In this document: positions 6,332 through 63,558 of the stretch, piece by piece
How the letters are laid out: each line of letters starts with the position of its first letter
Position numbering within the stretch: the stretch's first letter is position 1
DNA from: Candidatus Omnitrophota bacterium
Lineage (GTDB): Bacteria; Omnitrophota; Gorgyraeia; Duberdicusellales; 4484-171
NCBI GenBank assembly: GCA_003154195.1
Contig: PMCS01000008.1
Coordinates: 79,366-143,365 of the forward strand
Reading direction: 5' to 3'
Length of the DNA: 64,000 nt
Made by a program: the position numbers and the translations under genes
Notes under the pieces: generated by a model
What the model was told of the DNA's origin: nothing
The model's database searches: none
Seen by the model: the letters and a program-made list of their open reading frames with translations, nothing else

Positions 6332-6458
6332 CCGGAAAAATGCGGCAAACGCATTTTTCCGGTCCTGCCCTGCCTATCGGCAGGAAAAAATGCCGTTTAC
6401 CTTTCTTCTCCTATCCGCGAAGCGGATGATAATTATTTTTTGCTTCGCAAAAAATAAT
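6332..6458. repeat. cluster of four hairpin repeat modules
   Basis: ccggaaaaatgcggcaaacgcatttttccgg (6332-6362); cctgcctatcggcagg (6368-6383); atccgcgaagcggat (6413-6427); aattattttttgcttcgcaaaaaataat (6431-6458). Each module recurs elsewhere in the window. Confidence 0.8.
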
Positions 6459-6460
6459 GT

Positions 6461-6922
6461 TTATTTTATTTTCTTGCTGAGGATTTCGCGCATTTCACGC
6501 ATGAACTGGTTAATATCTTTGAATTGGCGGTAAACCGAAGCAAAACGGACATAGGCGACGTCATCCAGCTTGGCTAGTTTCTCGACGACTATTTCCCCTA
6601 ACTGACGCGATTCTATTTCCTGTTCGAATTTCTTTTGGACATCCAGCTCGACCTCACTGACCATGCTTTCCATTTTTTCCATACTTACCGGGCGCTTTTC
6701 GCAAGCCTTTAGCAGGCCGTTTAAAATTTTCTGGCGGTTGAACGGCTCGCGCCGGCCATCTTTTTTTATTACCATCAAGGGAGTTTTTTCTATATACTCG
6801 TAAGTGGTAAAACGTTTACCGCAGTTGATACATTCACGGCGCCGACGCACCGCTGTGCTTTCCGCGGTTTCCCTTGAATCGATTACCTTATCTTCATTAT
6901 GGTTGCAAAAAGGGCATTTCAT
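6461..6922 (-). CDS. nrdR: transcriptional repressor NrdR
   Basis: [17 protein letters not shown]...[17 protein letters not shown] zinc ribbon plus ATP-cone. Confidence 0.9.
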
Positions 6923-7177
6923 TTAATCCCTCCCTTTAATGAGCAGATACTTTACAAATTTTTACCAAAATTTGTAAAGTATAGTACCGCTCCGGCGGGA
7001 CGTCTGCGAATTAAACCCCGCCCTTTTGGCGTCATCGATAAATCAAACTTTTCTTTATAATAACCGCTCTATAATTACAATAAACCGTTTTTTCATCTAA
7101 ACATCTCGCCAAAAGGGCGGGGTCAAATTCGACTACGTATTTTTGCTGCACTCATCGAGCCGGCAAAAATCCAAATC

Positions 7178-7639
7178 TCATTTGATTTTTATCTTCCGCA
7201 ATTTTACCTTCGCTTCTTTCAAAAAAGACGCCGCCATTTTATCGGGATAATCGCCGGCAACAATGACTTCTTTTATACCGACATTTACAATCATCTTTGC
7301 GCAGATGCTGCAAGGCGTATGAGTAATATACAAAATACTGTCTTTTGCCGATATTCCGTGCCGCGCCGCCTGCAAAAATACATTTTGTTCGGCATGCAGC
7401 CCGCGGCAAATCTCATGGCGCTCGCCGCTGGGCACATTAAGTTTCTGGCGAAGACAACCGACGATATCGCAATGCGTAATTCCCGCCGGCGCGCCATTAT
7501 ACCCGGTAGCAAGGACATGCCGGTCATTAACCAATACTGCGCCGACTTGCCGGCGCAAGCAGCTGGAACGCTCGCTCACCAGATACGCCACCTTCATGAA
7601 ATATTCGTCCCACTTAGGCCGGCTGGTATTTTTTGCCAT
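7178..7639 (-). CDS. dCMP / cytidine-deoxycytidylate deaminase (ComEB-like)
   Basis: Zinc-binding motifs HAEQNVFLQAARHG and PCSICAKMI. Confidence 0.85.
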   Translation of the reverse strand: MAKNTSRPKWDEYFMKVAYLVSERSSCLRRQVGAVLVNDRHVLATGYNGAPAGITHCDIVGCLRQKLNVPSGERHEICRGLHAEQNVFLQAARHGISAKDSILYITHTPCSICAKMIVNVGIKEVIVAGDYPDKMAASFLKEAKVKLRKIKIK

Positions 7640-7663
7640 GCGAAAATCCTTATTTTACGGTAA

Positions 7664-8911: not shown

Positions 8912-8944
8912 GTTTTACCTCTTGTTAAATTAAAAAAGACATTT

Positions 8945-9110
8945 CAATTCTTACCGGCACCCTGGCCATTGCCTTTACCCAAACCGGCTTTCCGCCTTCG
9001 CTAAAGTTAGCCTGATAGGCAAAACCTATCCATATTTGATGGCTGGCTTCGGCGAGACTTCTCCAAAGCTCGAAGAGCGAAGGAGAGCCTAACCCTGGCC
9101 CTAACCCATT
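8945..9110. repeat. GGTTAGGG/CCCTAACC-family element, copy B (inverted relative to copy D)
   Basis: ccctggccattgcctttacccaaaccggc matches the family core. ggcttcggcgagacttctccaaagctcgaagagcgaagg is the reverse complement of the module at 63593-63633. Ends gcctaaccctggccctaaccc and abuts the rpiB stop. Confidence 0.7.
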
Positions 9111-9559: not shown

Positions 9560-9636
9560 TGTTTTATATACACAGATAATCACTGATGAGACGATGCAGA
9601 TGATCACAGATAAATATCAGCGATAATTAGCGTTCT

Positions 9637-10734
9637 TCACAGCCATTCCTTCAATTCCACGATTGCTTCTTTTATAATATCAAATGCTTCTTCATAATGT
9701 TCCTGGCTCTTGCCGATAGGATCGGGAACGCCGATCACTCTTCCATCGGATAAAAATTTTCTCAACGGGAAAACCCTGCCTTCTGCCGTCGGTTCAAGCT
9801 TTAAAACGTAATCGGTATGCGCGTCTTCCATGGTAAAAATCAAATCCGAAGAAAGAATCAACTGCCGGTTAAGTTTTGTCGCGCGAAAACCCCTGATATC
9901 CATGCTTTCTTTTTCTTTTAAAAGACTGACGATGGAACTGGAAGCCGCGGAGCCTTCATAAGCATAAACGCCGGCGGAGATTATTTCATACCGATCTCTT
10001 AAATATGGCTTCGATTCGTCAATCTGCTTCTCCAGAATAAATTGGGCCATGGGAGAGCGACAAGTATTGCCCGTACAGATAAAAATAACCCGTTTTTTTA
10101 TAAAAACATCGACGATTTCTCTTTCCGATATCGTCCCTTCCCGCAAAATCTTGAAAGGATTACACGTTAAATCTACAACCGTAGATGCTTGCCGATAAAG
10201 GGACGGCCCGCTGTCGACAATTAAATCCACAAGGTTTCCTAAGCCGGATTCGACTTCCTGAGCGGATGCCGCCTCCGGCTTACCGCTTAAATTTGCCGAA
10301 GGCAAATAGACCGGCGCGTTTACCCCTTTTAAGATTTTATTGGTAACAATGTGCGCCGGAATACGTATGCCTAATTTTTCGTCTTTATCCGAATAATAAA
10401 TCATCGTCAGCGGCCCCGGCCAAAATTTTTCCATCAGCCGATAAGCAAAGGGGGGCATTACGGTAAAATAGTAATCCCTTGCCTTTTCCCAGCTATCGGA
10501 AACAATGGCAAAAGGTTTATCGGGCGGCCGGTTTTTTATCCGGGCAAGTCTCTGCACGGCATCTTTGTTCTCGGCATAAGCCGCCAAACCATAAACTGTT
10601 TCCGTAGGCAAAACAACAATCATCCCGTTTAAGATAGCATCCACCGCTTTACCGATAAGCGCAAAATCAATTTTCTGAGGATCAATAAATATTTTTTCCA
10701 TATTATTTTTTGCTGCGCAAAAAATAACCGCCAT
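9637..10734 (-). CDS. fusion of threonylcarbamoyl-AMP synthase (TsaC/YwlC) and low-molecular-weight protein phosphatase (YwlE-like)
   Basis: N-terminal YrdC/Sua5 domain (VVLPTETVYGLAAYA...WPGPLT) and C-terminal LMW-PTP P-loop FICTGNTCRSPMAQ with ...VPDPIG. The likely true start is the ATG at 10701, one nucleotide from a hairpin. Confidence 0.8.
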   Translation of the reverse strand: MAVIFCAAKNNMEKIFIDPQKIDFALIGKAVDAILNGMIVVLPTETVYGLAAYAENKDAVQRLARIKNRPPDKPFAIVSDSWEKARDYYFTVMPPFAYRLMEKFWPGPLTMIYYSDKDEKLGIRIPAHIVTNKILKGVNAPVYLPSANLSGKPEAASAQEVESGLGNLVDLIVDSGPSLYRQASTVVDLTCNPFKILREGTISEREIVDVFIKKRVIFICTGNTCRSPMAQFILEKQIDESKPYLRDRYEIISAGVYAYEGSAASSSIVSLLKEKESMDIRGFRATKLNRQLILSSDLIFTMEDAHTDYVLKLEPTAEGRVFPLRKFLSDGRVIGVPDPIGKSQEHYEEAFDIIKEAIVELKEWL

Positions 10735-10825
10735 CCGCTTCGTCCCGACGCGCCTGAATATCGCGAAAATACCTTTTCAGACATTTTCGCGAAGCTTTCG
10801 GGACTCCGCTTACGCTTCGCGGATG
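10703..10825. repeat. AT hairpin plus interrupted CCATCCGC hairpin with about 70-bp nested insertion
   Basis: ttattttttgctgcgcaaaaaataa (10703-10727). ccatccgcttcg ... cgcttcgcggatg are split by an insert that carries its own palindrome cgcgaaaat...attttcgcg. Confidence 0.65.
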
Positions 10826-10885
10826 AAGAACGGTATATTGAAACGCGGGTACCTTGCCACAAAGCAGGCAATCATAAGCAATTCT

Positions 10886-11353
10886 TTATTTAAATTTAAG
10901 CTTCAACACTCTCAATACCGGGCAATACTTCTTATCTTTCAAAGCAAGAATCTCTACGGCGAGAATAATAGAATTCAAAAATGCCGGTTTGCCGATACCG
11001 GCGCAAGCTATGCCCAACCCTTTGGGGATACTGACCATGGAAAAAACGGCATCCAGGCCATCGAGCATACCGCCTTTTAACGCCACGCCGATAACCGGTA
11101 TATTTACATAAGAAGCGATGAACCCGGGAAGCGCCGCGGCCATGCCGGCGCAGGCAATTATCACACCAACCCCTTGTTTCTCCACATTCAAGCAATATTC
11201 CCGCAGTTTTTCCGGATGGCGATGCGCCGAAATAACCTGCAAGTCATATCCGATATTTAACTCATTCAACAAATCAAAGCCTTCTTTCAAAGTTTCCAAG
11301 TCGCTTTTACTGCCTGCCACAACCGCTATTTCTTTTTTCGGTATTTTCATCAT
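10886..11353 (-). CDS. purE: N5-carboxyaminoimidazole ribonucleotide mutase
   Basis: MMKIPKKEIAVVAGSKSDLET...GVGVIIACAGMAAALPG. A GGGAGG Shine-Dalgarno sequence lies 3-6 nt upstream of the tandem ATGs. The ORF-track start at 11455 is probably too long. Confidence 0.9.
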   Translation of the reverse strand: MMKIPKKEIAVVAGSKSDLETLKEGFDLLNELNIGYDLQVISAHRHPEKLREYCLNVEKQGVGVIIACAGMAAALPGFIASYVNIPVIGVALKGGMLDGLDAVFSMVSIPKGLGIACAGIGKPAFLNSIILAVEILALKDKKYCPVLRVLKLKFK

Positions 11354-11491
11354 TCGCCTCCCGAATATCGCAGATAAAAAGAATCCTTCAACTCGGCGAA
11401 GTCTCATTAATAAAAATTGAGCCCGCAAGCTTGCTTCGCCGCTACAACAGCGCAACCGCCTAACGGGCTCAACTATTCTACCTTACTGCCG

Positions 11492-12802: not shown

Positions 12803-12973
12803 GTTTACCCCCTAGCGCGGTGAAACCGGCATCCGTATTTCTATTCCTTTCGGTTAATTGCCCTTTATACCTGTTGTGTTGTGTTTATTATTATACTCCA
12901 AAACAAATAGAATGTCAGCGGAAAATAATTATTTCGGCTTTACGCTAAATATAATGTTCAAGCCTGATATTTT

Positions 12974-15481: not shown

Positions 15482-16495
15482 CTACACCATGACCATCTTT
15501 TCTCTCGCTTTAACTATCTCTCCGATAATATACGAATGAAAATTCTTATTTTTGCCCAGAAAATATAAAACCCTGGCCGCATGGTGCTTATCCAATACCA
15601 GAATCATCCCTATCCCCATGTTGAAAACCGTGCACATCTCGCGTTCGGGGATGCCGCCATTTTCCTGGATTATCTTAAAGATCCTCGGAACCGGCCAACT
15701 TTTCTTACGCAGCACCATCCCGCAACCGTCGGGGATGATTTTAGTAGCCTTGCTGTAAAACGCGCCGCCGGTGATATGGGCGATACCTTTAACCGGCGCG
15801 GCGCGCGAAGAAGAAAAAACCGAGAGTAAAGACAACACCGGTTTTACGTAAATACGGGTCGGAGCCAATAAATCTTTAGCGTATTTTTTTATATTTTTTT
15901 CACCTAAGGCCTTGCGCGCCAGGGAGAAACCGTTGGAATGTAAACCGCTCGAGCTAAGGCCGATCACAATATCGCCGGCTTTAATATCGCGGCCGTCAAC
16001 CATCTTTGTTCGGTCAACGACACCCACGCAAAAACCGGCCAAATCATATTCATCCGGTTTATACATCCCCGGCATTTCCGCGGTTTCCCCTCCTACTAAA
16101 TGGCAATCGGATTCCTGCATCCCCTGATGGATACCGGAAACAATATCTTTTAAAACTTTCGGCTTAACCTTGCCGCAGGCGATATAGTCTAAAAAAAATA
16201 ACGGCCTAGCGCCGAGGCAGATAACATCGTTAACGTTCATCCCCACCAGATCAATGCCTACGGTATTATGAATATCGCAATCGATGGCAATTCTTAGTTT
16301 GGTCCCCACCCCATCGGTCGAAGAAACTAAAACCGGGTCCTTACACCCCGATAAATACGGCGATAAGGCAAACGGCGAACCAAACGCCCGGGCGCTGGTC
16401 GGCATATTAGTCGAAACGAAATTCTTTATCCCCGCGACGAATTCATCGGCCTTCTTGATATCCACGCCGGATTTTTTATAAGTCAGTTTTTTCAT
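15482..16495 (-). CDS. purM: phosphoribosylformylglycinamidine cyclo-ligase (AIR synthetase)
   Basis: VGIDLVGMNVNDVICLGARPLFFLDYIACGK... typical of PurM. Confidence 0.95.
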   Translation of the reverse strand: MKKLTYKKSGVDIKKADEFVAGIKNFVSTNMPTSARAFGSPFALSPYLSGCKDPVLVSSTDGVGTKLRIAIDCDIHNTVGIDLVGMNVNDVICLGARPLFFLDYIACGKVKPKVLKDIVSGIHQGMQESDCHLVGGETAEMPGMYKPDEYDLAGFCVGVVDRTKMVDGRDIKAGDIVIGLSSSGLHSNGFSLARKALGEKNIKKYAKDLLAPTRIYVKPVLSLLSVFSSSRAAPVKGIAHITGGAFYSKATKIIPDGCGMVLRKKSWPVPRIFKIIQENGGIPEREMCTVFNMGIGMILVLDKHHAARVLYFLGKNKNFHSYIIGEIVKAREKMVMV

Positions 16496-16725
16496 ATTTT
16501 TTTACTCCGTAAAAAAATAACCTTCTGTAGAAAATATCTTTGGAAAATTATCTACATTAGCTACATGGCCTACATGTATGCATTGAATTGCCTTGCGAAC
16601 TTTGCCAGCCTCGCCTAGCCCGCCTTGCCGAACAAGTCGAGGCAGGCTCGGCTAGGCGGGCGCCTTTACGGGAAAAGGTTTTAGTTATTTTTTCTTAACT
16701 GCAAGATGTTGATTTTCACTATGTT

Positions 16726-18120: not shown

Positions 18121-18454
18121 TTCCTTTTATTCGCTGTTCCAGCGAATTTCTATAAAACAATTTTGCGCCTCCGGCGGTGCCCTGCGGGCGGCGGTGTTAT
18201 AAAGCGGCTTGCCTTTGTGCTTTCCGCTCATAAGACAATTTTTTAACGGTAAAAGGCTGCGGTAATTTAGGCGGTTGCGTAACTCGCCCCGCCTCGGATA
18301 GCTCGGCGGGGCTCAAACACCCGCAACCGTCCCGGCTTCGCTTCGGGATTTCCTGAATTCCCTCAGCCTTTTACCTAAAATTGTCAAATCGCGGAAACCG
18401 CAAAGCCAATCCGTTTATAGGTTAAAAATAAAAAAAACAAATTGTGGATAGCGA
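18121..18454 (-). promoter_or_regulatory. 334-nt highly structured purQ-purF intercistronic/leader region
   Basis: Multiple hairpins: attcgctg/cagcgaat, gcggttgcg...cgcaaccg enclosing gccccgcc...ggcggggc, and cccggcttcgcttcggg. Also a 27-bp GC motif gcctccggcggtgccctgcgggcggcg (18166-18192) that recurs at 51384-51410. No riboswitch consensus was recognised. Confidence 0.4.
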
Positions 18455-19318
18455 TTATTTTTTACGAAGTAAAAAATAATTGACGGCGTTTTGAAAAATA
18501 CGTAATCCCCAGGGAACAGTTTTTTTCTTATGCCAATCGGGAATCTGGTGCTCGAACATACAGCGTTCCGGATGAGGCATCAGCCCTAAGATTCTTCCCG
18601 TCGCGTCGGTGATACCGGCAATGTTACGCAGGGAACCATTAGGGTTGACCGTTTCACTTTCTTCGATTCCACCAACATCATCACAATACCTGAAAGCGAT
18701 CCGGCCGGCGGCCTCAAGCTCCTTGACTATTTTTTGAGGCGCAAGAAACTTTCCTTCGCCGTGAGCAATCGGCAACCGTATCACTTCCGGTAAGCCCTTC
18801 GTCCATATCTTTTCCGGTTTTGTTTCTTTCTTTTCGTCCCTCGTCCTTCGTCCCCGCCATCCTGCGGATGGCGAGGTCTCGCCAATTTGTTTTACAAATT
18901 GGCGGACTTCTTCCTTCGTTTTAAGGTATATCCATCTATCAACAAACCGGCCGCAGTCATTAAAGCTGAGAGTGACTTTCTGCCGGAAATCCGCGTCGGG
19001 CAAGATTCCGGTTTTAACCATTACCTGAAAACCGTTACAAATACCCAGTACCAGTCCACCCTTGCCGATAAAAGCCTTTAATTCATCCTTGAGCCACAAA
19101 AGCAGTTCTAAAGAAAAAATTTTCCCCGCGCCGAGGTCATCGCCGTAGCTGAAGCCCCCGGGAAAACAAATAATCTGGTAGCGCGATAGGCTCTTTGCTT
19201 CTTTAACATAATTGATATGCCGCAAAGAAGCTTCGGCTCCGGCCAGCTCAAAGGCCAAAGTCGTTTCCTTATCGCAGTTAATCCCCGCCGTACGTAATAT
19301 TAATGCTTTAGGTTTCAT
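18455..19318 (-). CDS. purQ: phosphoribosylformylglycinamidine synthase I (glutaminase subunit PurQ) carrying an in-frame repeat-element insertion
   Basis: MKPKALILRTAGINCDKET...GICNGFQV...PIAHGEG...MPHPER. It carries about 28 extra residues (ETSPSAGWRGRRTRDEKKETKPEKI) relative to canonical PurQ. The ORF-track start at 19366 is a TTG; the ATG at 19318 is preferred. Confidence 0.85.
   Translation of the reverse strand: MKPKALILRTAGINCDKETTLAFELAGAEASLRHINYVKEAKSLSRYQIICFPGGFSYGDDLGAGKIFSLELLLWLKDELKAFIGKGGLVLGICNGFQVMVKTGILPDADFRQKVTLSFNDCGRFVDRWIYLKTKEEVRQFVKQIGETSPSAGWRGRRTRDEKKETKPEKIWTKGLPEVIRLPIAHGEGKFLAPQKIVKELEAAGRIAFRYCDDVGGIEESETVNPNGSLRNIAGITDATGRILGLMPHPERCMFEHQIPDWHKKKTVPWGLRIFQNAVNYFLLRKK
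18836..18905. repeat. three-hairpin repeat cluster inserted in-frame in purQ
   Basis: ccatcctgcggatgg (18858-18872), ggcgaggtctcgcc (18870-18883; same motif at 35918-35931) and ccaatttgttttacaaattgg (18882-18902). Confidence 0.7.
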
Positions 19319-19366: not shown

Positions 19367-19599
19367 GACACCAAGACACCAAAAAAATTAAAAACTATAG
19401 ATTTTTTCGTGAATTTGTGTCTTGGTGGCAAAAACATTTTTGTTTTTATTTTAAAACCTAAACCTTACCACAGAGGCACCAAAAAAAGACTCAAAACCTT
19501 AAAACTCTATCACTAAGGCACTAAGAAAACCAAAAATTATATTTTTTCTTAGTGTACTTGGTGCCTTGGTGGTAAATTTTTAGGTTTTATTCAGATACT
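19367..19599. repeat. purL-purQ intercistronic region with three long imperfect hairpins
   Basis: accaccaagacac...gtgtcttggtggt; taccacagaggcaccaa...ttggtgccttggtggta enclosing cactaagaaaa...ttttcttagtg. Confidence 0.6.
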
Positions 19600-24602: not shown

Positions 24603-24708
24603 TTTTACCTCTCTTTATTTTAATGAAACTTGCCCGGTATTCCGGGCTTAGTTGAATTATCCCCGAAGAGGAATTTGCTTCGCAAAAAAATAAACATCCC
24701 GCTTACGC
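24602..24708. repeat. degenerate family-3 element plus partial AT/CG hairpins
   Basis: aatgaaacttgcccggtattccgggcttagttgaattatccccgaag, then tttgcttcgcaaaaaaataaac and atcccgcttacgcggat. Confidence 0.5.
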
Positions 24709-24902
24709 GGATAAAATATTACTTACCTACCCCGGGGTATAATCCTATGAATTTCAATTACTATGCTTCCTTAATGATCCTCGGACAGACTGTTTGCTGA
24801 AGCTCCACAATCTCACAGGCATGGTCTTCCGGAGTTGGGATAAAGATACCGCAGGTATCCTTATCCCAATTGTACTACTGACCGCTGTTATTTCAAGTAA
24901 AA

Positions 24903-25538
24903 CTATTTTTCGCGCCGCGAAAAATAGCCCGCGATAAGCATTTTAACATTATCGCCGATACGCGAAAATTCCTTATCGGCAAATAAATCTTTGTTAAAAA
25001 CGCTCCCGCCGAAGGCGGCCGCGTCGGCGCCGTTTTTAAAAAACTCGGCGATGTTGGCGGCGTTCACGCCGCCGCAAGCAAGCAGTTTTATATGCTCAAA
25101 GGGAGCCTTTATTTCCTTAAAATAAGCTGGGCCAAAAAAGCCGGCGGGAAAAACCTTTACCATTGCCGCCCCCGCCTGCCAGGCGCAATATATTTCCTGC
25201 GGGGTAAGCGCGCCCGGGAAAAAAGCGATTTTTTCCCTTCGGCAAAAAATCGCTACTTCTTTTACCAAAACCGGAGAAACAATAAATGAAGCCCCGGCAT
25301 TGATCGCCGCCTTTAAAGAACTTTCGTCGAGGACTGTTCCCGCGCCGACCGACAACCTGCCCCTGGCCGCCTTAATTGTCCTTTTGATAACCGCCGCGGC
25401 ATGGGGGGTATTCAAAGTAATCTCAATTGCTCTCAGGCCGACAGCCGCTACCGCTTCCACCAGCGGCTCGATATCTTCTTCCTTAACCCCACGTAAAATG
25501 CCCAAAATAGGAAGCTTTTCAAATTCTTTGATGTCCAT
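24903..25538 (-). CDS. eda: KDPG / KHG aldolase (Eda)
   Basis: LPILGILRG...IEITLNTP...GAGTVLD...FPG; Eda fold. The palindrome ctatttttcgcgccgcgaaaaatag overlaps the stop. Confidence 0.85.
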   Translation of the reverse strand: MDIKEFEKLPILGILRGVKEEDIEPLVEAVAAVGLRAIEITLNTPHAAAVIKRTIKAARGRLSVGAGTVLDESSLKAAINAGASFIVSPVLVKEVAIFCRREKIAFFPGALTPQEIYCAWQAGAAMVKVFPAGFFGPAYFKEIKAPFEHIKLLACGGVNAANIAEFFKNGADAAAFGGSVFNKDLFADKEFSRIGDNVKMLIAGYFSRREK

Positions 25539-25550
25539 AATTAAAAACTA

Positions 25551-25722
25551 GGTTAGGGTAAGGGTAAGGGTAAGGGTTAAGGGTTAAGGGTTAAGGGTTA
25601 AGGTTTAATAATCTTTTTTTTAAAAGCCTTTACCTTAACCCTAACCCAAACCCAAGCCGGCCTCGTAACCCTGACCTTAACCCGGTATTTATCATACCGG
25701 CTTCCTCACCCTAGCCTTGGCC
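25551..25722. repeat. GGTTAGGG/CCCTAACC-family element, copy C, with telomere-like G-tract minisatellite
   Basis: ggttaggg (gtaaggg)x3 (gttaaggg)x4 ... ccttaaccctaacccaaacccaagccggcctcgtaaccctgaccttaaccc...caccctagcc. There are seven GGG tracts spaced 3-4 nt apart. Confidence 0.75.
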
Positions 25723-26673: not shown

Positions 26674-26939
26674 AGCTTTATCTCCTCAATGAGGCTTGGG
26701 TTTTTATAAGCCGTAGGCGCAGTAAAAACCCTTAGCCTAATTTCCCGCCCCTGGCGGGATCCCGCTTCCTCGACATGCTTATTCAGGAAGGCGGTGATAC
26801 TTCCGAGGCGTTTCGGGAAAATATCGTAAGAGATTTCACCGGTATATAGACGCCCGGAAGCCTATCTGATTTATTTAGGAATACTATTTGCAGTAAGCCC
26901 CACTGGCTCGTCTATACAAATATATTTATCTTTTCGCCG

Positions 26940-31951: not shown

Positions 31952-32078
31952 GATAGGGATATTTTTTTAGCCACGGATACGCACTGATTAAACACAGATA
32001 AAATAATTATTTAATTATTTTCATCCGTGTTTATCCGTGTCAATCTGTGGCAAAATAAAAACACCGATAATCAGCTTA

Positions 32079-32531: not shown

Positions 32532-32546
32532 AGCTATTCTCCTTTT

Positions 32547-32577
32547 TATTTATTTTTTGCGCAGCAAAAAATAAATA
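32547..32577. repeat. AT hairpin module
   Basis: ttatttattttttgcgcagcaaaaaataaataa, between the MFS stop and the yqeY start. Confidence 0.75.
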
Positions 32578-32644
32578 ATTATATTATACCAAAACGACAG
32601 CGTAAAAAAAGGTTTATCGCGATAAGCTATGTTTCCACTGCTTG

Positions 32645-33913: not shown

Positions 33914-34055
33914 AGTCAGGTATTATAGCAAAAGCGGCGGGTTTGGGTAGGATTAAAAGACAGCGGGCAGGAAGGAGTAGGTAGGAATGCTGAAGGCGTA
34001 ATTATCTAAAATAACACTATACGCTTACCCGAAAGCACACTAGAATAGAAGGCCC

Positions 34056-34595: not shown

Positions 34596-34857
34596 CTTCA
34601 TCCCATTAATGTATGTGAAGAGACAATCCGCAACTTAACCTCCCCATTCCAACTTACCCGTCAAATAATACTCAGATCGGTTTAAATTAAGCTAAAATAC
34701 TAGGTTTTTGTGGTAATCGGCGGGTTGTGAGCTAATATATCGTGTCCCCGGAACTTTGCAAAAATTTCACCACAGAGCGCACAGAGTTCACAGAGATGAT
34801 CAATCAATTCACATTTCAAGGGCTGCCCCTGTTATCCTTCTCCTGTTATCCTTGTTA

Positions 34858-35814: not shown

Positions 35815-36096
35815 AACCCGTTTATTCCAAATCTAGACTGCTCCCCACATCTCCGCCTATCCCGATAAGTATAAGTTTCAAGGAATAACAGCCCTTGCCT
35901 GCCAAAAGTTGAAACTTTTGGCGAGGTCTCGCCTCCGGCGGAAAATGTGAATTGACCCTATTTTCCCCGCCCCTTTTATTTTTTTAATCTGTGAAAATCT
36001 GAGGAATCTGTGGACAAAAAGCTTTCGTTTTTCCAGCTTCCTTTTTCCTTATTTTTTCCAATGCCCCGTTATATCACATTCCCCCAAAAAAGTAAA

Positions 36097-36164
36097 CCCG
36101 AAAAGTGTGTTTAGAGCGAGCAAAGAGCGGCAAATATTTGCCGCGAGTAAACACATTTTTCGGG
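36097..36164. promoter_or_regulatory. nested palindrome (operator-like)
   Basis: cccgaaaagtgtgtttag ... gtaaacacatttttcggg, enclosing the perfect 18-bp palindrome gcggcaaatatttgccgc. Confidence 0.45.
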
Positions 36165-36187
36165 TGGAGAAAAACTTTCACCATATT

Positions 36188-36230
36188 AGAAAAACCCCGG
36201 CAAGCAGGTATCTTTACCTGCCTACCGGGG
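36188..36230 (-). terminator. rho-independent terminator of the Cys-rich secreted protein gene
   Basis: Minus strand reads ccccggtaggcaggtaaagatacctgcttgccgggg followed by ttttt. Confidence 0.7.
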
Positions 36231-36248
36231 TTCAATCTCTATACTTAC

Positions 36249-37560: not shown

Positions 37561-37791
37561 TTATAGAAATATACTGCTCCCTATTAACAAAATAAGGTTT
37601 TTAAGCTGCCCCCCGGAATTACAAAAGAAAAAAGGCACCGACCCCTTTATCAATTCATTTTAAAAGTATAATTGGCCATTAGGCATTTATCATTTTTAAA
37701 AATTTAAAATGGTAAATGGTCAATGAACATTTTAAAATGAAATTACGTATTTATAATTTTGGTGCCTTTGTGTCTATATTTCGCTAAGGTT

Positions 37792-39766: not shown

Positions 39767-39826
39767 TTATTTTTTTGCTCCGCAAAAAAATAACCGGATA
39801 AATTTTTTGCAAAGCAAAAAATTTAT
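39767..39826. repeat. two tandem AT hairpin modules
   Basis: ttatttttttgctccgcaaaaaaataa and ataaattttttgcaaagcaaaaaatttat, between the macA stop and the macB start. Confidence 0.75.
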
Positions 39827-40806
39827 CGCCGGGCGCCGCCGCGCGGGCCGAACGGCACAAGGGGATTGCTGCTGCCGGGATTATTTTTTTTCTTAGCAAC
39901 GTTAGCTTTTTCCGGCATAATCAATACCACATCCTCGGCTTCTAAACCGGAAATAATTTCCGTGTTTTTGTCGTCGGCAATGCCGGTAGTTATTTCCACC
40001 CGCGTAGGCTTTTTGCCGTCGCCGCCATGGTTCTTCACAAAAACAAAAGTGCCATGCTTGCCCTGCTTTACCGCCTCGTTGGCAAGCATTAAAACATTAG
40101 TCCTGCTTTCTTCGATAATATCCACGTTGGCGCTCATCCCGGAACGAAACACATCAGGAACCTGGTCCGGTAAAATATCAACCTCATAAATCGTGACATT
40201 GTTAACCGTTTTCGATTCATAATAAATATGGTCGACTTTACCTTTAGCTTTTATCAGAGGGTAAGCGTCTAAGCTGATACTCGCTTCCTGGGCAAGCTTC
40301 ACTTTCCCGACATCGGTCTCATCGACCTGCGCCTGGACAATCAACCGGTCCGACAGGACAATAACCGGGTCGGAAGACGTCATGGTCTGGCCGGGCTCCA
40401 CGGAACGAACGATAACCTGCGCGTCGATCGGGGCGACCAAAGGCGTCGGCTTATAAACATCTTTCCAATACGCTATCGCGGTCGCGCCCTGCGTCCTGGC
40501 AGCGTCAAGCAAAGCTGCCCGCTCGGTAGAGCTCATCCACGCCAAAACCTGACCCGCTTTTACTTTTTGGCCCTCGACGACCAGGATTTCCTCGACGCGG
40601 CCGTTGATCGGCGGCTTGATCTCCAGGCGATTCTGGGGCTGCACCACCCCGGTGGTAGAAACAGACGTCTGGATATCGCCGTAGACAGGGGTTACTTCTT
40701 TGATAACTTCACCCTTAGCGCTGCCTTTTTTAAATTTTACGAATAATGCGACGGCGGAAATAACAATAATTATAATAACGATAATTTTTAATTTATTGAT
40801 TTTCAT
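39823..40806 (-). CDS. macA: periplasmic adaptor (membrane fusion) protein, HlyD/MacA family
   Basis: N-terminal anchor, a biotinyl-lipoyl-like hairpin and a beta-barrel. Overlaps tolC by 14 bp. Confidence 0.85.
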   Translation of the reverse strand: MKINKLKIIVIIIIVISAVALFVKFKKGSAKGEVIKEVTPVYGDIQTSVSTTGVVQPQNRLEIKPPINGRVEEILVVEGQKVKAGQVLAWMSSTERAALLDAARTQGATAIAYWKDVYKPTPLVAPIDAQVIVRSVEPGQTMTSSDPVIVLSDRLIVQAQVDETDVGKVKLAQEASISLDAYPLIKAKGKVDHIYYESKTVNNVTIYEVDILPDQVPDVFRSGMSANVDIIEESRTNVLMLANEAVKQGKHGTFVFVKNHGGDGKKPTRVEITTGIADDKNTEIISGLEAEDVVLIMPEKANVAKKKNNPGSSNPLVPFGPRGGARR

Positions 40807-43658: not shown

Positions 43659-43662
43659 ATTT

Positions 43663-43980
43663 TTAATGAAACTTCGCCAAACACAAGCCCGAAGGGCGCC
43701 GCGCGAGGCGGTAGTCGAATTATCCCGAAGGGACGGGATTTACTTCGTAAAAAAATATCCTCCATCCGCTTCGCGGATGGAGAAAAAATAAATAAAATAT
43801 TTCCCCTGCGTCTTTAATGATACTAAAACATCTTGTTTTAGTCAACCCCGTTAGAAAACTTCGTTTTCTAACGGGGTAAAGATAAATAGTTTAACCGAAA
43901 AAATTTTTCCTGCCTAAGGCAGGGCAAGACCGAGAAAATGCGTAACCGCATTTTCTCGGTTAGCGAAAACTATTTATCTA
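43663..43980. repeat. mosaic of at least seven hairpin repeat modules (candidate structured RNA)
   Basis: Inverted family-3 element (43663-43740); ccatccgcttcgcggatgg (43762-43780); ctaaaacatcttgttttag (43823-43841); ccccgttagaaaacttcgttttctaacgggg (43848-43878); cctgcctaaggcagg (43909-43923); ccgagaaaatgcgtaaccgcattttctcgg (43929-43958); all within an outer palindrome agataaatagttt...aaactatttatct. Confidence 0.75.
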
Positions 43981-46558: not shown

Positions 46559-46885
46559 AAGTTTTAGCGATAATTATTTTATACCCGGCGAGACTCATTG
46601 CTTAGGGCAATGGGACTAAGCCTCAAACTCATTGCCCCCTTCGGGGCAATGAAACTTGGCCCGCCAAATACGGCGGGAGTTAGTTTCATTGATTCGGCTA
46701 TCCCCCTACGGGGATAGTTCAACTAAGCCCGGGGCACCAGGCAAGTTTCATTACGGCGAAGTCTCAAGCTCATTACCTGAAATCTGAAGTCGCGCTCTAA
46801 GCGCTCCCACGATTCCAGGTAATTCGACTACCGCCTCATTCTGCGCCCTTCGGGCTTGTATTCGGCGAAGTCTCATTAGATATCG
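46559..46885. repeat. tandem array of short hairpins ending in a family-3 element
   Basis: cattgcttagggcaatg; cattgccccttcggggcaatg; cccgccaaatacggcggg; ctatccccctacggggatag; gcgctctaagcgc. Then ggtaattcgactaccgcctc...cttcgggcttg...ggcgaagtctcattaga (46818-46882). Confidence 0.75.
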
Positions 46886-48021: not shown

Positions 48022-48103
48022 CCCTTCGCTTCGCTCAGGGTTAATTCGACTACGGCCTCACTCTACGCCCTTCGGGCTTGATTTCGGCCAAGTCTCATTA
48101 AAT
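48022..48103. repeat. family-3 element (GGTAATTCGACTACCGCCTC...GGCGAAGTCTCATTAAAT)
   Basis: cccttcgcttcgctcagggttaattcgactacggcctcactctacgcccttcgggcttgatttcggccaagtctcattaaat. Confidence 0.8.
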
Positions 48104-51382: not shown

Positions 51383-51486
51383 AGGTACAATGCCTCCGGC
51401 GGTGCCCTGCGGGCGGCGTGTGCTATATGGCGGATTGGTTTTGCGCTTTATAGGTGGAAAAGAAAAAAATAAAACTTAAACTAAAT

Positions 51487-51807
51487 TCAATTACTTATTT
51501 TTTTACGCTTGCTCGATTTTTTACCCATCAATTTCTCTTTCTGCTTACGCTTCAATCGCTTAATCCTTATCTCTTCCAAAAACGCGTTTTTAAAATAGCG
51601 GTATTTCTTGCACCACGCTAATTTCACCGGCAGACGGGTTCGCGTATATTTTGCGCCCTTGCCGGCGCGATGTTTGGCGACTCTTTGTTTTAGATTCGGC
51701 GTATAACCGGTATAGTAAGTATTATCGCAGCAACGCAGGATATATACCCAGAATTTGCCGTAACGCTTTAGCTTTTTCCGCTTTTTTTTAATCTTTTTAT
51801 CGCACAC
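51487..51807 (-). CDS. GIY-YIG nuclease family protein (UPF0213)
   Basis: [38 protein letters not shown] is a GIY-YIG motif. Lys-rich tails. Confidence 0.7.
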
Positions 51808-56975: not shown

Positions 56976-56983
56976 ACCCATTA

Positions 56984-57058
56984 CCCCCTTCGGGGGTAAT
57001 TCGACTACCGTCTCGTCCGGCGCGCTTTGCGCTTGGACTCGACGAAGTCTCATTAAAT
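56984..57058. repeat. family-3 element
   Basis: taccccttcgggggtaattcgactaccgtctcgtccggcgcgctttgcgcttggactcgacgaagtctcattaaat. Its 3' TCATTAAAT contains the greA stop. Its 5' hairpin sits 8 nt upstream of the ygiQ ATG. Confidence 0.8.
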
Positions 57059-57523: not shown

Positions 57524-57544
57524 ATAAGCCTCCGAAATTATTCT

Positions 57545-57910: not shown

Positions 57911-57926
57911 CGCACGCTTCCCTCTC

Positions 57927-60900: not shown

Positions 60901-61013
60901 TTACCCAAAAATAAGCTTTCTAAACGTAAATCGTCCGACATATTTTCAATGAGGCTTATCCCGCCGCATTTTGGCGGGATGCAGCCGAATTGGCCCGGCA
61001 CTAATTTTGTCAC
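57927..61013 (-). CDS. large P-loop NTPase, DUF87 / HerA-VirB4-like core with about 550-aa C-terminal region of unknown function
   Basis: Walker A ICGSPACGKT, Walker-B-like LIFYIDEIG and an ATQ sensor motif (CCVLATQYLEDID). 1028 aa. The ORF-track start is a GTG; possible internal ATG starts at 60941 and 60848. Confidence 0.5.
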   Translation of the reverse strand: MTKLVPGQFGCIPPKCGGISLIENMSDDLRLESLFLGNRISLESGGGLLSKFFLPMGNLMGHVFICGSPACGKTVFAKSIIEEAAQKEVPSIIIDLKGDLSSLCLLFDKTSPEYFEFFSEEYGQSEDWRDRARQEFDNQMRHLGRFGLTEDYVKRLKDTVEVAVFTPRSKSGIPLAISLLPPAPENIKELYDKERENIFTAIDFLISALIGRLYVNEEINQKDREKNFLSELILYSWLNGIEIHGIKGLARFIDLIDHLPLAKVGDAPVDEYIPEPVRKLLADKLREHLNGAERIWYDGVPLDIDLFSQRFDKTPINIINLSELETFEDRYLVISQVAYSIYCWMKKQGPSDRPRLIFYIDEIGSKRSFLSTDPFHFVARPAIELLLRESKNSGVCCVLATQYLEDIDFKGINDCDTWVIGKLSTNKEKEKILENGFQSGVKFDKLATFLDILDNEQFLIKLRSGEVILVKTRRVASFHRILPPSLISMVMSRQVQGNYKTFYLSGKEATGQEGEQARTTVLLPETIFEGFNFGIARGEPFILDIEPEEVIKLCLAELAKEGIPADEARFRNVQLLITRVHRADWKINTLKRDSLGNVVDRVKDEGKFCRFDAPLKLEKEAQDKLVEIVLAREDNRRSAQLWEKVAVLLPTANRLSEIDVKSHVGREMNIHPKEVAVNLIEKNVAVAWKIAIDYNKKIIDFYFDILRRELKAEFPAFSKQEAITEIKKIFPDLDLKEENIEVRGFLYILNYNTADYNYTFKVNKKSGKVVNQKKTISETRVKQIAKENASEEPLAIWQQNNMWNFYYPKGMILVVEDESEKVTLKKYLSAPEADDLAVAAAAKESGEKYFLPVRKDFKNGRWIISLASKKWSALAEIEEDASVKLTLRLLKDYCYQEAQKILANNKITVITGEETNPWHDGWEFQFLSSLGYLIIKVDSQKQEFIKERLTHDGAAHFAGLAIGGEVISVKDADLSWSVGVKKGGKKYYVQLNKQDGSVQKVTTGNFLFRKPVDINGLTGTPKAPGSQP

Positions 61014-61039
61014 AGCAAAATCAGTGCCGGGTTATACTC

Positions 61040-61298
61040 CGCAAAAAATACTGCCATCCGCTTGCGCGGATGGGAAAAAGGTAGATTACAGAAAAACAAC
61101 CAAGAAACAATCACCAAACAATATCTAATCTCATAGTGGTTATTTTAGCACTTTCGGTATTATAGACAAGATTATAAATCTTAACGCTTAAGTTTATTTT
61201 TTGCGCCGCGAAAAAAGACCCTTCGCTTCGCTCAGGGTAATTCGACTACCGCCTCGTCCGGCGCGCTTCGCGCTTGGACCCGGCGAAGTCTCATTAAA
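61040..61298. repeat. repeat cluster: half AT hairpin, CCATCCGC hairpin, AT hairpin and a family-3 element
   Basis: gccatccgcttgcgcggatggg (61053-61074); ttttttgcgccgcgaaaaaa (61197-61216); cccttcgcttcgctcagggtaattcgactaccgcctcgtccggcgcgcttcgcgcttggacccggcgaagtctcattaaat (61217-61298). Confidence 0.8.
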
Positions 61299-61877
61299 TT
61301 TTTTTAAAAGTTTTTTAAAAACCCTGCCGGGAAATCCCACGACGTTATCGTAGTCTCCCTTAATAGATTTTATAAACTGGCCCCTTAAATCCTGAATCGC
61401 GTAGCTGCCGGCTTTATCGCGGAAATCGCCGCGGCCGAGATAATCGGTTATTTCGTCAGCCTTAAGCTTTTTAAAATTAACTTCCGTCTTCGCATAATCC
61501 GTGACTAATTTTTTATCGCGCCGCCGGCACAGGGCAAGCCCGGTGATAACTTCGTGAGTATTCCCCGATAAAATCGAAAGCATCTTTTTCCCGTCCCGGT
61601 AATTCCGCGGCTTGCCTAAAATCTTATTCTTAAAAACAACAATGGTATCGGCGCCGGCCACAATCAATCGGGGAAATTTTTCAGCTACCGCTTGCGCCTT
61701 TAATGTCGCTGCCAAAACCGCAAATGAAACCGGGTTTTTTTCTTTAATCGCACCTTCATCGATATCGGCAGGGTAAATAATAAAGTCTCTGACGATTTTT
61801 TTAAGGAGATTTATCCGGCGCGGCGAGCGGGAGGCAAGGACAATTTTAATATTTTTATAATTCTTGCGGGGTTTCAT
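61194..61877 (-). CDS. maf: Maf-like nucleoside triphosphate pyrophosphatase with repeat-encoded C-terminal extension
   Basis: IVLASRSPRR...GADTIVV...GKP...; Maf fold. The last 33 or so residues (ETSPGPSAKRAGRGGSRITLSEAKGLFSRRKK) are translated from the family-3 element plus an AT hairpin. Confidence 0.85.
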   Translation of the reverse strand: MKPRKNYKNIKIVLASRSPRRINLLKKIVRDFIIYPADIDEGAIKEKNPVSFAVLAATLKAQAVAEKFPRLIVAGADTIVVFKNKILGKPRNYRDGKKMLSILSGNTHEVITGLALCRRRDKKLVTDYAKTEVNFKKLKADEITDYLGRGDFRDKAGSYAIQDLRGQFIKSIKGDYDNVVGFPGRVFKKLLKKFNETSPGPSAKRAGRGGSRITLSEAKGLFSRRKK

Positions 61878-61914
61878 CGCTATTCTAAATAATTAGCGCG
61901 CCGGAAAAATTTCA

Positions 61915-63558
61915 CTAAATGCCGGCCGATTCTTTTTTTATCCGCATCAGCGGACAGTAATTATTTTTTACGCAGTAAAAAATAATTAGCGGCAGAAAAA
62001 TAACAAATACGCCCGAAATGATAAAGTAAAAATTATGCGATCTCATGAGCGGCATCCCGACGATAACAGCGTCGATGACAAAATGCGCCAGAACAACAGT
62101 TTCGAAACCATACCGTAAAAATACTAAAACAAAGATACTGCCGAATATCGTAAGCTCGATGCCGCGAAGATAAACGGGAAAAAATGCGTAGGTGGAATGA
62201 GCAAAACCCCAGAATAAAGCGGACAAAAAAATTGCCAATAACGTACACTTGGTAAAAGCTTTTAAAAAAGTAAACGCAAAAAGCCGATAGGCCGCCTCTT
62301 CGCCGATCGCCGCGACAAGGCTGATTGTTAATACGGAGATAAACGGCAAAAAAGTGGCCAACGCGTTAGAATAGCTTGTATCCGGTACTATCCAGGCGCC
62401 GAAAAAGTTCTTTGCCCCCAAATAAAATAAAGTGATGTAACCTAAAAATATAAAAGCTAAACTGTAACCAACGATAAATACCGGCGTAATCCGCGAAAAT
62501 TCAATCTTTTTATCTTTAAACGCCCTGTAGACAGTTAACTTATCCCGGGATAGCGCTTCCCCTAAGGTTACATACGCGAAAATAAACATCACTAAACCTA
62601 TAGTAGAGACAACCGCGCCCGAAAGCGCATTCATAAAGAATAAAACCTTACTGATTGTGTCGGGGTAAGAATTCCATATAAGCGGTAAGCCGTTAAAAAA
62701 CGAGAATAAACTTAAAACACCGACAATCGCGCTAAGCAGGACCCCGGGCATCCAGTCAAAACATAAATTTTTTACTTTGAAACCAAGCAGGAATACGGCG
62801 GCGACGGTAAGAATAAACATCGCGATTTGAGACGATACCGCTAAAGCCGCGCCCCAGGATGTTTCTTTATTAAACGAACGCCAGAATTCTTCGGGAATAT
62901 AGAGGTACCTTTTAAACCTGCCGACTTTATCCCCATAAACATCCACGGCTAATCTTAAAGCGGCGTTTTTGACCCGATAATATTTTCTCTCCCATTCAAA
63001 ATAATGGTCGGTTCGATGATTTCGTTTTTCACTGGCGCTTTCTTTAAGCCGATAATCCGCCAGATTAAAACCGGCGGAACTAATCATATTTTGCGCGATA
63101 ACCTTAGCGTTTTTAGAAGAAAGGTCGGCGCCGGGCGAATCGTCAAGCAAAAAATGCCTGAAATTCAAAACATCGCCGCTGGCTGGGTCAACATCGGCGG
63201 CATAACCTTCCTTCTCCAACTCCTTGAACCATCGAATGTGCCAAAAACAAATGGCGACATCCTTGTTGGAAAGACTACTTGACGGAAATTTATACTTATC
63301 CGCGCGTTGGTAATCATTTTTTTGCAAATAGGCAAGCACCGAATCGTTGGAAGAAAAAATTATCGTTTTTTCAAACCCCTGTAAATTAAATTTTTCTTTC
63401 GCGAAAAATAACTCCGCTCTTCTTAAAACTTCTTTTTTATCCAGTTTAAGGTCGACGGGGGCAACAGGAAAGATTTTGCCGAAATACGACAAAAAAATAA
63501 TGATTCCCGCCGCGCCAAAAACCAGCCAAATGATTAAAGGTTTTATATTTTTGCCCAT
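61915..63558 (-). CDS. CPBP (CAAX protease / Abi) family intramembrane metalloprotease with N-terminal periplasmic domain
   Basis: EEAAYRLF, FWGFAHS and HFVIDA motifs in C-terminal TM helices. The tail ...FYCVKNNY... is encoded by an AT hairpin. Confidence 0.7.
   Translation of the reverse strand: MGKNIKPLIIWLVFGAAGIIIFLSYFGKIFPVAPVDLKLDKKEVLRRAELFFAKEKFNLQGFEKTIIFSSNDSVLAYLQKNDYQRADKYKFPSSSLSNKDVAICFWHIRWFKELEKEGYAADVDPASGDVLNFRHFLLDDSPGADLSSKNAKVIAQNMISSAGFNLADYRLKESASEKRNHRTDHYFEWERKYYRVKNAALRLAVDVYGDKVGRFKRYLYIPEEFWRSFNKETSWGAALAVSSQIAMFILTVAAVFLLGFKVKNLCFDWMPGVLLSAIVGVLSLFSFFNGLPLIWNSYPDTISKVLFFMNALSGAVVSTIGLVMFIFAYVTLGEALSRDKLTVYRAFKDKKIEFSRITPVFIVGYSLAFIFLGYITLFYLGAKNFFGAWIVPDTSYSNALATFLPFISVLTISLVAAIGEEAAYRLFAFTFLKAFTKCTLLAIFLSALFWGFAHSTYAFFPVYLRGIELTIFGSIFVLVFLRYGFETVVLAHFVIDAVIVGMPLMRSHNFYFIISGVFVIFLPLIIFYCVKNNYCPLMRIKKESAGI
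61958..61988. repeat. AT hairpin module inside the CPBP 3' coding end
   Basis: taattattttttacgcagtaaaaaataatta; near-identical to 18454-18480. Confidence 0.75.

Follow-up and report, generated by a model that had tools for sequence, protein, structure and literature searches.

The intergenic DNA of a chromosomal segment from a Candidatus Omnitrophota bacterium carries many short hairpin-forming repeats, which are described here. The segment (contig PMCS01000008.1, positions 79,366 to 143,365 of the forward strand) is the 64,000-nucleotide (nt) stretch that was analysed as a whole, hereafter the window. It has ~45% GC, and its GC skew is negative on the plus strand over its full length. All long open reading frames (ORFs) but one lie on the minus strand, among them recG, purL, glgB, recJ, macB, ygiQ, greA, maf and rpsU; the exception encodes a 179-aa sigma-70 region-4 protein (34056-34595). 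No tRNA genes and no Rfam families were found in the window. Exact protein matches place the window on a 280-kb contig and in the same strain as the metagenome-assembled genome (MAG) GCA_003154645.1, and the material comes from peat, fen and wetland metagenomes. The nearest named YgiQ homologues are Candidatus Omnitrophota proteins with 59-64% identity. L-numbers denote loci that were compared with the window. L001-L005, L116, L192 and L193 are from the same strain as the window, and L192 belongs to the same genome outside it, where 9 kb was examined.

Intergenic hairpin families

A preliminary description of this DNA had recognised at least four types of palindromic module, with at least 25 modules placed in almost every gap at a density called unusual. 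All four types recur far above chance and the module count is now at least 28, but structured gaps make up about 60% rather than nearly all: of the 42 gaps that are 40 nt or longer, 26 fold at z < -2, versus 4 of 42 length-matched coding segments. The enrichment is real, although for perfect hairpins with a stem of at least 9 bp it is only about twofold (45 per 100 kb in the window versus 22 per 100 kb in 1.4 Mb of unrelated control genomes). The description had made its case depend on recurrence beyond the window and on the families withstanding proper alignment. Type 1 recurs three more times in L192, which also has a paralogue of the unit at 10703-10826 and another CCCCGTTAGA hairpin, and the families survive alignment, with covariation. 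The palindromes are recurrent families of the repetitive extragenic palindrome (REP), bacterial interspersed mosaic element (BIME) or MITE (miniature transposable element with inverted repeats) kind and not terminator noise; a T-rich tail follows just one of the 18 long hairpins in the gaps. The comparison with Rfam that had been suggested gave no match at the gathering threshold (Rfam 15), and at E <= 1 only spurious miRNA-like hairpins appeared. Nothing that describes these elements turned up in the literature, whether it was searched by topic or by sequence word.

Type 1 is the hairpin TTATTTTTTGC-N3-GCAAAAAATAA, whose stems have 9-21% GC; it has six matches at three or fewer mismatches versus 0.01 expected. 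With the 7-T variants included there are 11 copies in the window, and the family listed earlier lacked those at 16495 and 24903. Type 2 has three matches versus 0.34 expected; beyond these, the copy at 61054 has a 4-nt loop, that at 10731/10826 is split and that at ~24695 is degenerate. At 18858, the site of a supposed Type 2 copy, the purQ-like coding sequence contains a different palindrome (CGCCATCC..GGATGGCG), which is not a member of the family. The two copies of Type 3 (6331-6384 and 43909-43960) lie in opposite orientations and differ by a compensatory GA/TC to AG/CT change. Type 1 directly adjoins Type 2 in six of six cases.

Every palindrome is built symmetrically around three central bases, C-TTC-G or C-GAA-G, and the loops mostly read C-GAA-G in the transcript, since transcription runs on the minus strand. 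They are therefore triloops and not UUCG tetraloops (4-nt loop closed by C-G), which had been taken to suggest selection at the RNA level; that argument also falls on the asymmetry of Type 4, which ignores the direction of transcription (see below).

Type 4, a covarying hairpin family

A covariance model of Type 4, built from 38 copies, picks out ten copies in the window at E < 0.01, besides a partial one. A generalised AATGA-helix..helix-GAATT pattern has ten matches in the window versus 0.2 by chance, and adds 6938-7012 to the set. Six copies are on the minus strand and five on the plus strand. The copies formerly taken to start at 48022, 56984 and 61217 are real, but those starts take in the adjoining second hairpin, and the cores lie at 48042-48099, 56997-57054 and 61238-61295. 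Copies at 7125, 26688, 60948, 46715 and 6938 are new to the list.

The interior of Type 4 is hypervariable yet paired, with 89% of alignment cells paired versus 30-42% in slid controls. Compensatory change is seen at 12 pairs, with 143 double-change cells versus 46 in shuffles, and none of 500 shuffles scored as high. The closing stem consists of AAU, tandem G.A/A.G pairs, a 4-bp helix, a bulged T and a T.G pair, and the apical loops are mostly C-GNA-G. Among variants the 4-bp helix covaries (GACT/AGTC, AACT/AGTT, GCAG/CTGC, GGCT/AGCC, GCAC/GTGC) while AATGA..GAATT stays fixed.

Outside the window, a pattern with exact termini places Type 4 in at least 103 metagenome stretches, with 93 distinct cores of 47-63 nt among the matches listed, and the covariance model has 133 matches in those loci. 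No Type 4 was found in IMG/VR viral contigs. The low-GC contig L102 belongs to Omnitrophota by its ThrS, which has 71-78% identity to many named MAG proteins, so that the family spans distinct lineages of the phylum. Type 4 is thus a covarying structured hairpin family of ~55 nt, present in two Omnitrophota lineages. A coding role as an N-terminal peptide (MRLRRV..) was considered and rejected, given an in-frame stop in the 48099 copy, YgiQ homologues that start ~45 residues later and the occurrence of both orientations.

A composite element with conserved segment order

The modules had been described as concatenated in varied orders and orientations, like BIME, Correia or RPE mosaics. Both orientations do occur and the repeats are of the REP/BIME/MITE kind, but alignment shows that the order is conserved, and free shuffling does not apply: as colinear segments, the four types make up a single composite, foldback-like element. 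Read inward from its outer end, Type 4 comes first and a CCC..GGG second hairpin next, before Type 1, Type 2, a spacer, a CCTGCC hairpin and lastly Type 3, as seen in five aligned loci (43660-43980, 6325-6465 on the reverse strand, 60942-61300, L129 and L140). Complete copies have inverted Type 4 sequences at both ends (6938-7182, 60948-61295 and L129 3441-3776). The other copies, which are the majority, are truncated or reduced to single hairpins, and hairpins are also nested within hairpins. The features of the window are collected in Table 1.

Table 1. Repeat features of the window, with L192 positions for two families. CM, score against the Type 4 covariance model; z, folding z score; SD, Shine-Dalgarno sequence.
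Position	Strand	Feature	Remarks
6331-6458		Truncated composite, opposite orientation	Type 3 6331-6384, Type 2 6411-6429, Type 1 6432-6458; fills gap from nrdR to BFN-domain gene
6938-7012	+	Inverted Type 4-like partner AATGA-GCAG..CTGC-GAATT	16-bp inner stem; abuts nrdR SD; z -7.3; found by generalised pattern
7125-7182	-	Type 4 copy	Overlaps TGA stop of upstream gene; outer end of composite 6938-7182; CM 49 bits
10703-10826		Type 1 (10703-10727) and Type 2 split by nested ~70-nt hairpin	GAAGCG repeated on both sides
11350-11408	-	Partial Type 4, 5' 22 nt only	Directly after terminator-like hairpin upstream of purE; E = 2
16495-16519		Type 1 stand-alone hairpin	Ends at ATG of downstream gene
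18454-18480		Type 1 hairpin	Holds stop codon of purQ-like gene
24622-24716	+	Short Type 4 variant (24622-24659), second hairpin, Type 1-like, Type 2-like	Conserved order; AATGAAAC end abuts SD of small gene; CM 29.5 bits
24903-24927		Type 1 variant	Holds stop codon of ORF 24903-25538
26688-26759	+	Type 4 variant, then TCCCGCC-cct-GGCGGGA hairpin	AATGAGGC end abuts GAGGAG SD; CM 38.7 bits
29727-29778		Type 1 and Type 2 unit	Type 1 arm abuts likely recJ ATG at 29728
32546-32578		Type 1, 15-bp stem	Between TATAAT-like box and SD of downstream gene
39767-39827		Two tandem Type 1 hairpins	Occupy entire 57-nt gap from stop codon to macB ATG; z -6.7
43665-43722	+	Type 4 copy	Antisense to transcription; AATGAAAC end abuts ATG of groES-like gene; CM 69.4 bits
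43722-43782		Second hairpin 43722-43739, Type 1-like half 43740-43757, Type 2 43760-43782	Conserved order
43845-43877		Perfect 15-bp palindrome ACCCCGTTAGAAAAC-ttc-GTTTTCTAACGGGGT	ORF-less counterpart of GIY-YIG-flanking inverted repeats; z -6.5
43909-43960		Type 3	CCTGCC-taa-GGCAGG hairpin and 14-bp-stem hairpin ACCGAGAAAATGCG..
46559-46819	-	Run of AATGA(A/G)AC..GTT(T/G)..ATT-class hairpins, including 46715-46752	Colinear homologue at L140 4880-5040; z -7.9
46820-46877	-	Type 4 copy	Overlaps TAA stop of STAS/PilZ gene; CM 80.4 bits
48021-48099	-	Type 4 (48042-48099) and second hairpin	Directly after canonical rpsU terminator; CM 78 bits
51455-51848	-	GIY-YIG nuclease gene 51487-51807 in imperfect AT-rich inverted repeat (51455-51477/51829-51848)	PF01541, 57 bits
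56980-57000		Second hairpin ATTACCCCC-ttc-GGGGGTAAT	Adjoins Type 4; covers GGGGG SD-like run of ygiQ
56997-57054	-	Type 4 hairpin AATGAGAC..variable stem..GTAGTCGAATTA	First bases are TAA stop of greA; CM 81 bits
60948-60992	+	Inverted Type 4 variant AATGA-GGCT..AGCC-GAATT	Other outer end of composite 60948-61295; 6 nt from start of 1004-aa gene; CM 25 bits, E 1e-4
60994-61073		Composite inner segments: CCCGGCACT..AGTGCCGGG hairpin, Type 1 half, Type 2 (61054-61073)	
61193-61237		Degenerate Type 1 (61193-61218) and CCCTGAGCGAAGCGAAGGG second hairpin (61219-61237)	
61238-61295	-	Type 4 copy	94% identical to 56997 copy; outer end of composite 60948-61295; CM 80.6 bits
61958-61988		Type 1 hairpin	Inside 3' end of Rce1-like ORF
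3154-3334, 8912-9100, 25539-25722, 63565-63836; L192 13196-13363		~180-nt palindrome family	
19367-19599, 31952-32078, 35815-36248, 37561-37791; L192 17738-17849, 18585-18702, 20201-20396		Gap-specific word families	

Polarity and position relative to genes

Type 4 lies in sense orientation to its flanking genes 36 times and in antisense 43 times. In either class its purine-rich loop keeps to the sense strand of the element, the folding-energy asymmetry of the interior does not differ between the classes (p = 0.41), and G.U counts in the variable stem are symmetric (34 versus 39). Because neither the loop nor the energy asymmetry flips with transcription, and both orientations occur with symmetric G.U counts, the polarity belongs to the element and not to the host transcript. 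An apparent G.U asymmetry (127 versus 43) was rejected as RNA evidence, since the excess came from the constant termini. No replication or transcription strand bias was found for Type 4, and nearest-neighbour DNA folds show no strand preference.

Orientation does go with the nearest gene boundary: of 57 copies, 26 have their AATGAGAC end 20 nt or less from the start or end of an ORF, and 4 their opposite end. Sense copies in the window run into stop codons (TAA in greA and in the PilZ gene, and the TGA at 7178), and antisense copies abut a Shine-Dalgarno sequence or ATG (43658, 26673, ~24602 and 60941). Most simply read, AATGAGAC marks where an insert that has come to form the whole gap has its outer terminus; it touches the stop codon or the ribosome-binding region because native gaps are tiny and the insert fills them entirely.

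The maf ORF (61194-61877) runs 33 codons past its Pfam domain (the Maf match ends at aa 194 of 227), continues through Type 4 and stops in a Type 1 hairpin, and the native stop codon has apparently been replaced by the repeat. The ATG that the ORF finder assigned to ygiQ falls inside the Type 4 copy at 56997-57054, and YgiQ homologues start at query residue ~45-53; the real start is probably 56981 or 56975.

In several places a Type 1 hairpin extends precisely to a start codon and leaves no Shine-Dalgarno sequence between the two (16495, 29728, 39765 and ~10701; L192 13844-14083 and 16661-16840). These have GGAG in the loop (16507, 39780) or GAAGG just 5' of the stem (16525, 29758). The arrangement suggests a split or hairpin-bridged ribosome-binding site, like that of gene 38 of phage T4.

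Association with GIY-YIG nuclease genes

The window contains a small gene for a GIY-YIG nuclease (51487-51807), which we take to be COG2827/YhbQ-like, set in an imperfect AT-rich inverted repeat. At five unrelated sites, a 13-18 bp inverted repeat, (TTTA)CCCCGTTAGAGA../..TCTCTAACGGGG(TGAA), brackets such genes: L090, L194 (between pgk and tpiA), L195/L196, L197 and L198, the last a WOR-3 MAG. The units are 278-297 bp long and encode proteins of 81-106 aa. Perfect palindromes with the same arms and no ORF occur in L090, L195 and L197, and in the genome of the window at 43845-43877 and L192 16699-16727. Within the coding sequence there is a further conserved 13-14 nt inverted repeat, GGAAACGCTTCA../..TGAAGCGTTTCC, with its arms ~148 nt apart (L194 6071-6083/6232-6244) and at equivalent positions in L090, L195, L197 and L198, so that the entire unit could fold as a long hairpin.

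A connection with Type 4 is seen at several loci. In L191 two inverted Type 4 copies flank a GIY-YIG gene that is set in an 18-bp inverted repeat, all of it squeezed in between fabG and acpP, and in L100 and L137 a GIY-YIG gene is just downstream of Type 4. A second inverted-repeat family around the L194 gene matches sequence beside Type 4 in L132-type loci. Six GIY-YIG genes are present in 0.72 Mb of element-bearing DNA, versus none in 1.4 Mb of control loci. A Nitrospirota homologue (L199) has no inverted repeat, and thus the unit is not universal for the protein family. Many related GIY-YIG genes sit on very short contigs. An exact 27-nt repeat, GCCTCCGGCGGTGCCCTGCGGGCGGCG, is present in gaps 33 kb apart (18167-18193 and 51392-51418), the second just downstream of the window's GIY-YIG gene.

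At least the CCCC..GGGG palindrome class would be tied to a minimal mobile unit of ~280-300 bp that consists of a terminal inverted repeat (TIR), a GIY-YIG gene for 81-106 aa and a second TIR. The short palindromes may be its ORF-less form, either as miniature derivatives or as empty target sites that the nuclease gene invaded. Under either reading the link between nuclease and palindrome is correlative.

Mobility and alternative explanations

The Type 4 copies ending at 57054 and 61295 are 94% identical and have unrelated genes as neighbours, and a near-identical copy in L129 lies beside a third gene. In a relative whose YgiQ has 76% identity, the gap between greA and ygiQ is different and free of Type 4. 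Species-representative genome contigs, scanned with YgiQ, offered no close relative (best 61%), so that orthologous gaps could not usefully be compared there. The window paralogue at 10695-10840 and that at L192 16655-16845 differ by a 33-nt indel, which is the CCCCGTTAGA hairpin (29 nt, in the L192 copy) with a TAAG direct repeat, and in both paralogues Type 2 is split at its loop by a ~70-nt hairpin with GAAGCG on either side. Tandem G.A pairs in the 5'-Y-GA-R context and d(C-GNA-G) triloops are hyperstable motifs of single-stranded DNA, and both features of Type 4 fit a folded single-stranded DNA intermediate. From these comparisons we infer mobility of the repeats at the DNA level. The units would spread as DNA, probably via a folded single strand, and the transcribed hairpins probably act secondarily as stabilisers of 3' ends or modulators of translation starts.

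Several points weigh against this interpretation. Evidence of target duplication is confined to the one clean TAAG case, and no consistent duplication was found at Type 4 ends. Among near-identical strain contigs no presence/absence polymorphism or transposition event was seen; same-strain assemblies differ only in the copy number of a 16-nt tandem repeat and in homopolymer indels. Within a pair, the Type 4 ends differ from each other (~60% identity in L191), so that recent insertion as a TIR unit is at most putative, and the copies within the genome are diverged while termini and pairing are kept, which could equally reflect a host-level function. The metagenome loci were retrieved by the exact-termini pattern, and conservation of the termini there is partly by construction; the gene models are ORF-based. 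As for the nuclease, no Type 4 was found around four of the five units, the GIY-YIG gene of the window is not adjacent to Type 4, and we know of no GIY-YIG protein that acts as a transposase.

One alternative is that the hairpins are cis-regulatory RNAs of the host, such as transcribed 3' stabilisers, factor-dependent terminators, RNase sites or translation-start structures, under selection in the mRNA. Hairpins do lie exactly at stop and start codons; where Type 1 arms abut ATG, the loop contains GGAG or GAAGG stands just upstream; the Shine-Dalgarno-like run of ygiQ is sequestered by the second hairpin at 56980-57000; and Type 4 covaries and is conserved across Omnitrophota lineages. Selection in the mRNA is nevertheless an unlikely origin for a module that is antisense as often as sense, whose asymmetric features do not flip and whose variable stem has no G.U excess on either strand. 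Moreover, a U-tail follows only one of the 18 long hairpins, no Rfam family matches, Type 4 intrudes into the maf reading frame, and the module is absent from the relative's orthologous junction of greA and ygiQ. Secondary effects of the hairpins on the transcript are likely. That the palindromes reflect ordinary terminator variation or chance is hardly credible: a few canonical terminators exist, after rpsU and before purE, and the density of perfect long hairpins is only about double that of control genomes, but specific sequences recur at least 100-fold above chance, in a conserved segment order and in other genomes, and the families survive alignment with covariation.

Type 4 might also be a folded single-strand recombination site of the integron attC or Xer type, used by a tyrosine recombinase, with the mosaics as cassette boundaries. 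Its architecture is like that of attC, with ends that are conserved and pair, a small internal loop, an extrahelical base, and a terminal stem that is variable, also in length (47-63 nt); its polarity is independent of transcription, and it overlaps the stop codon of the preceding ORF. L132 resembles a cassette array: at 4761-7212, three Type 4 mosaics on the same strand separate small unrelated ORFs and a RelE/ParE-type toxin-antitoxin pair. The attC consensus boxes are RYYYAAC (R'') and GTTRRRY (R'), however, and Type 4 ends in AATGAGAC/GTCGAATT(A). The window copies stand in both orientations between housekeeping genes (greA, ygiQ, maf, rpsU), and no integrase was seen among the window ORFs scanned against Pfam, which were part of the total, or beside the arrays inspected, including L132; we regard a recombination site of this type as improbable. 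A classical REP/REPIN system mobilised by a RAYT (Y1 HUH transposase) appears similarly remote. In its favour, these are extragenic palindromes in high copy, GTAG occurs in Type 4, and Y1_Tnp genes flanked by their own hairpins occur in other Omnitrophota loci (L190, L127 and L154). In Type 4, though, GTAG is found on the 3' side of the palindrome, part of it pairs (G with T10, AG in the GACT/AGTC helix), and the conserved TCGAATTA comes after it; Types 1-3 have no such tag, and the six minus and five plus copies show no strand bias. The repeats that flank the Y1 genes of L190, L127 and L154 are unrelated, and these genes are not adjacent to Type 4. A homology search of reading frames of at least 45 aa found no Y1 homologue in the window. 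The L190 gene (1860-2660) encodes a 217-aa RAYT-like Y1_Tnp protein and has hairpins, CTGGCAACC-GCGTAG-GTTGCCAG, unrelated to the window modules.

On balance, nested hairpin-forming repeats of the REP/BIME/MITE kind that spread as DNA, one class of them linked to a GIY-YIG unit, are the explanation that we favour with some reserve. A more specific version is doubtful. It would make the repeats an undescribed class of minimal mobile element, in which a ~85-aa GIY-YIG gene, for the nuclease domain only, lies in the loop of a perfect palindrome, with ORF-less palindromes as non-autonomous copies or landing sites, Type 4 as the polar ends of larger composites, and spread as folded single-stranded DNA, preferentially into hairpin loops and into gaps between stop codon and Shine-Dalgarno sequence. 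It is just as tentative that such an element covers Omnitrophota and at least one WOR-3 genome and has progressively filled the intergenic space.

Relation to known repeat systems

REPs are defined as high-copy extragenic palindromes of 20-40 bp with a stem of 6-13 bp and a short loop, and many REP families are species-specific (PMC3733652). Types 1-3 and the second hairpins have the size and stem of a REP, and Type 4 is longer (47-63 nt). Like the REPs and BIMEs of Enterobacteria and Pseudomonas, including REPINs, the repeats described here are high-copy short extragenic palindromes that form composites with a conserved syntax, lie downstream of genes and occasionally inside the ends of ORFs, vary in a compensatory manner in their stems, and are suspected of mobilisation as single-stranded DNA. 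The fixed order in five loci is an analogy to BIME syntax only, with no relation in sequence. Unlike REPs, they have no unpaired terminal GTAG/CGTC tag and no association with a RAYT was seen. The composite has at least five hairpin types, including an AT-only stem, the conserved ends of Type 4 pair with each other around a hypervariable stem, and Type 4 spans at least two Omnitrophota lineages.

The repeats also resemble MITEs and foldback elements (Correia, ERIC/RU, RPE, Nezha), as non-coding 50-350 bp inserts with inverted ends that fill gaps; some read into ORFs, as RPE and ERIC do, truncated and nested copies occur, and there is a candidate ORF-bearing partner. Inverted ends bound a short non-coding unit at 6938/7182, 60948/61295 and L129 3441/3776, and the CCCCGTTAGA palindromes are likewise of this form. 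The ends here are structured hairpins, however, and not simple TIRs, target duplication was seen once, and the candidate partner encodes only a GIY-YIG domain (81-106 aa) rather than a DDE or other known transposase.

With integron attC sites Type 4 shares definition by structure, variable length, paired ends, an internal loop, an extrahelical base, strand polarity and abutment on the preceding stop codon; it differs in lacking the R-box consensus, in having no integrase in view and in being dispersed in both orientations among housekeeping genes. The small nuclease gene wedged between conserved genes (pgk and tpiA, fabG and acpP) recalls the free-standing GIY-YIG homing genes of phage T4 (seg), and palindromic hairpin repeats invading intergenic DNA are a feature of the mitochondria of fungi and sponges too, as mobile GC-cluster or hairpin elements. 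In contrast to both, a conserved inverted repeat of 13-18 bp surrounds the ORF here and also forms ORF-less perfect palindromes in the same genomes, all of this in the chromosome of a bacterium and not in a phage or organelle.

Further repeats

Other repeats share the gaps of the window. Imperfect palindromes of ~180 nt are made of GGTTAGGG- and CCCTAACC-like words, which resemble telomere repeats, and copies are 82-87% identical across gaps. At 63617-63760 a 16-nt tandem repeat, CCTTGGCGAAGGCAGA, is present in ~7 copies, and its copy number varies between otherwise identical assemblies; in L001 a further tandem repeat of ~45 nt adjoins it. Gap-specific word families (CCACCAAGGCACCAAG/CTTAGTGCCTTAGTG, CACAGATT/CACGGATAAACACGGATG and CATTTTAAAATG..GGTAAATG) form long imperfect hairpins, and L192 17752-17838 matches 37653-37738 of the window at 82%. 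The sigma-70 region-4 gene lies between long gaps in a low-GC stretch (33914-36248; 38% at 34-36 kb), which may be an island.

Implications

The repeats of the window are a genuine and unusually elaborate system of the REP/BIME/MITE kind, with a newly defined hairpin family and a candidate nuclease partner, and with a mechanism that we infer. Omnitrophota are abundant, uncultivated, small-celled bacteria with compact genomes. Repeats that occupy most of the scarce intergenic DNA, overlap stop codons and ribosome-binding regions and extend Maf are likely to shape operon expression as well as the quality of assemblies. Type 4 is a well-defined family, absent from Rfam and from the literature searched, and can be converted into an annotation model. 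The GIY-YIG gene inside a palindrome that is also found without a gene is a testable candidate for the origin of REP-like hairpins that lack a RAYT, and the link suggests a possible function for the widespread uncharacterised COG2827/YhbQ proteins.

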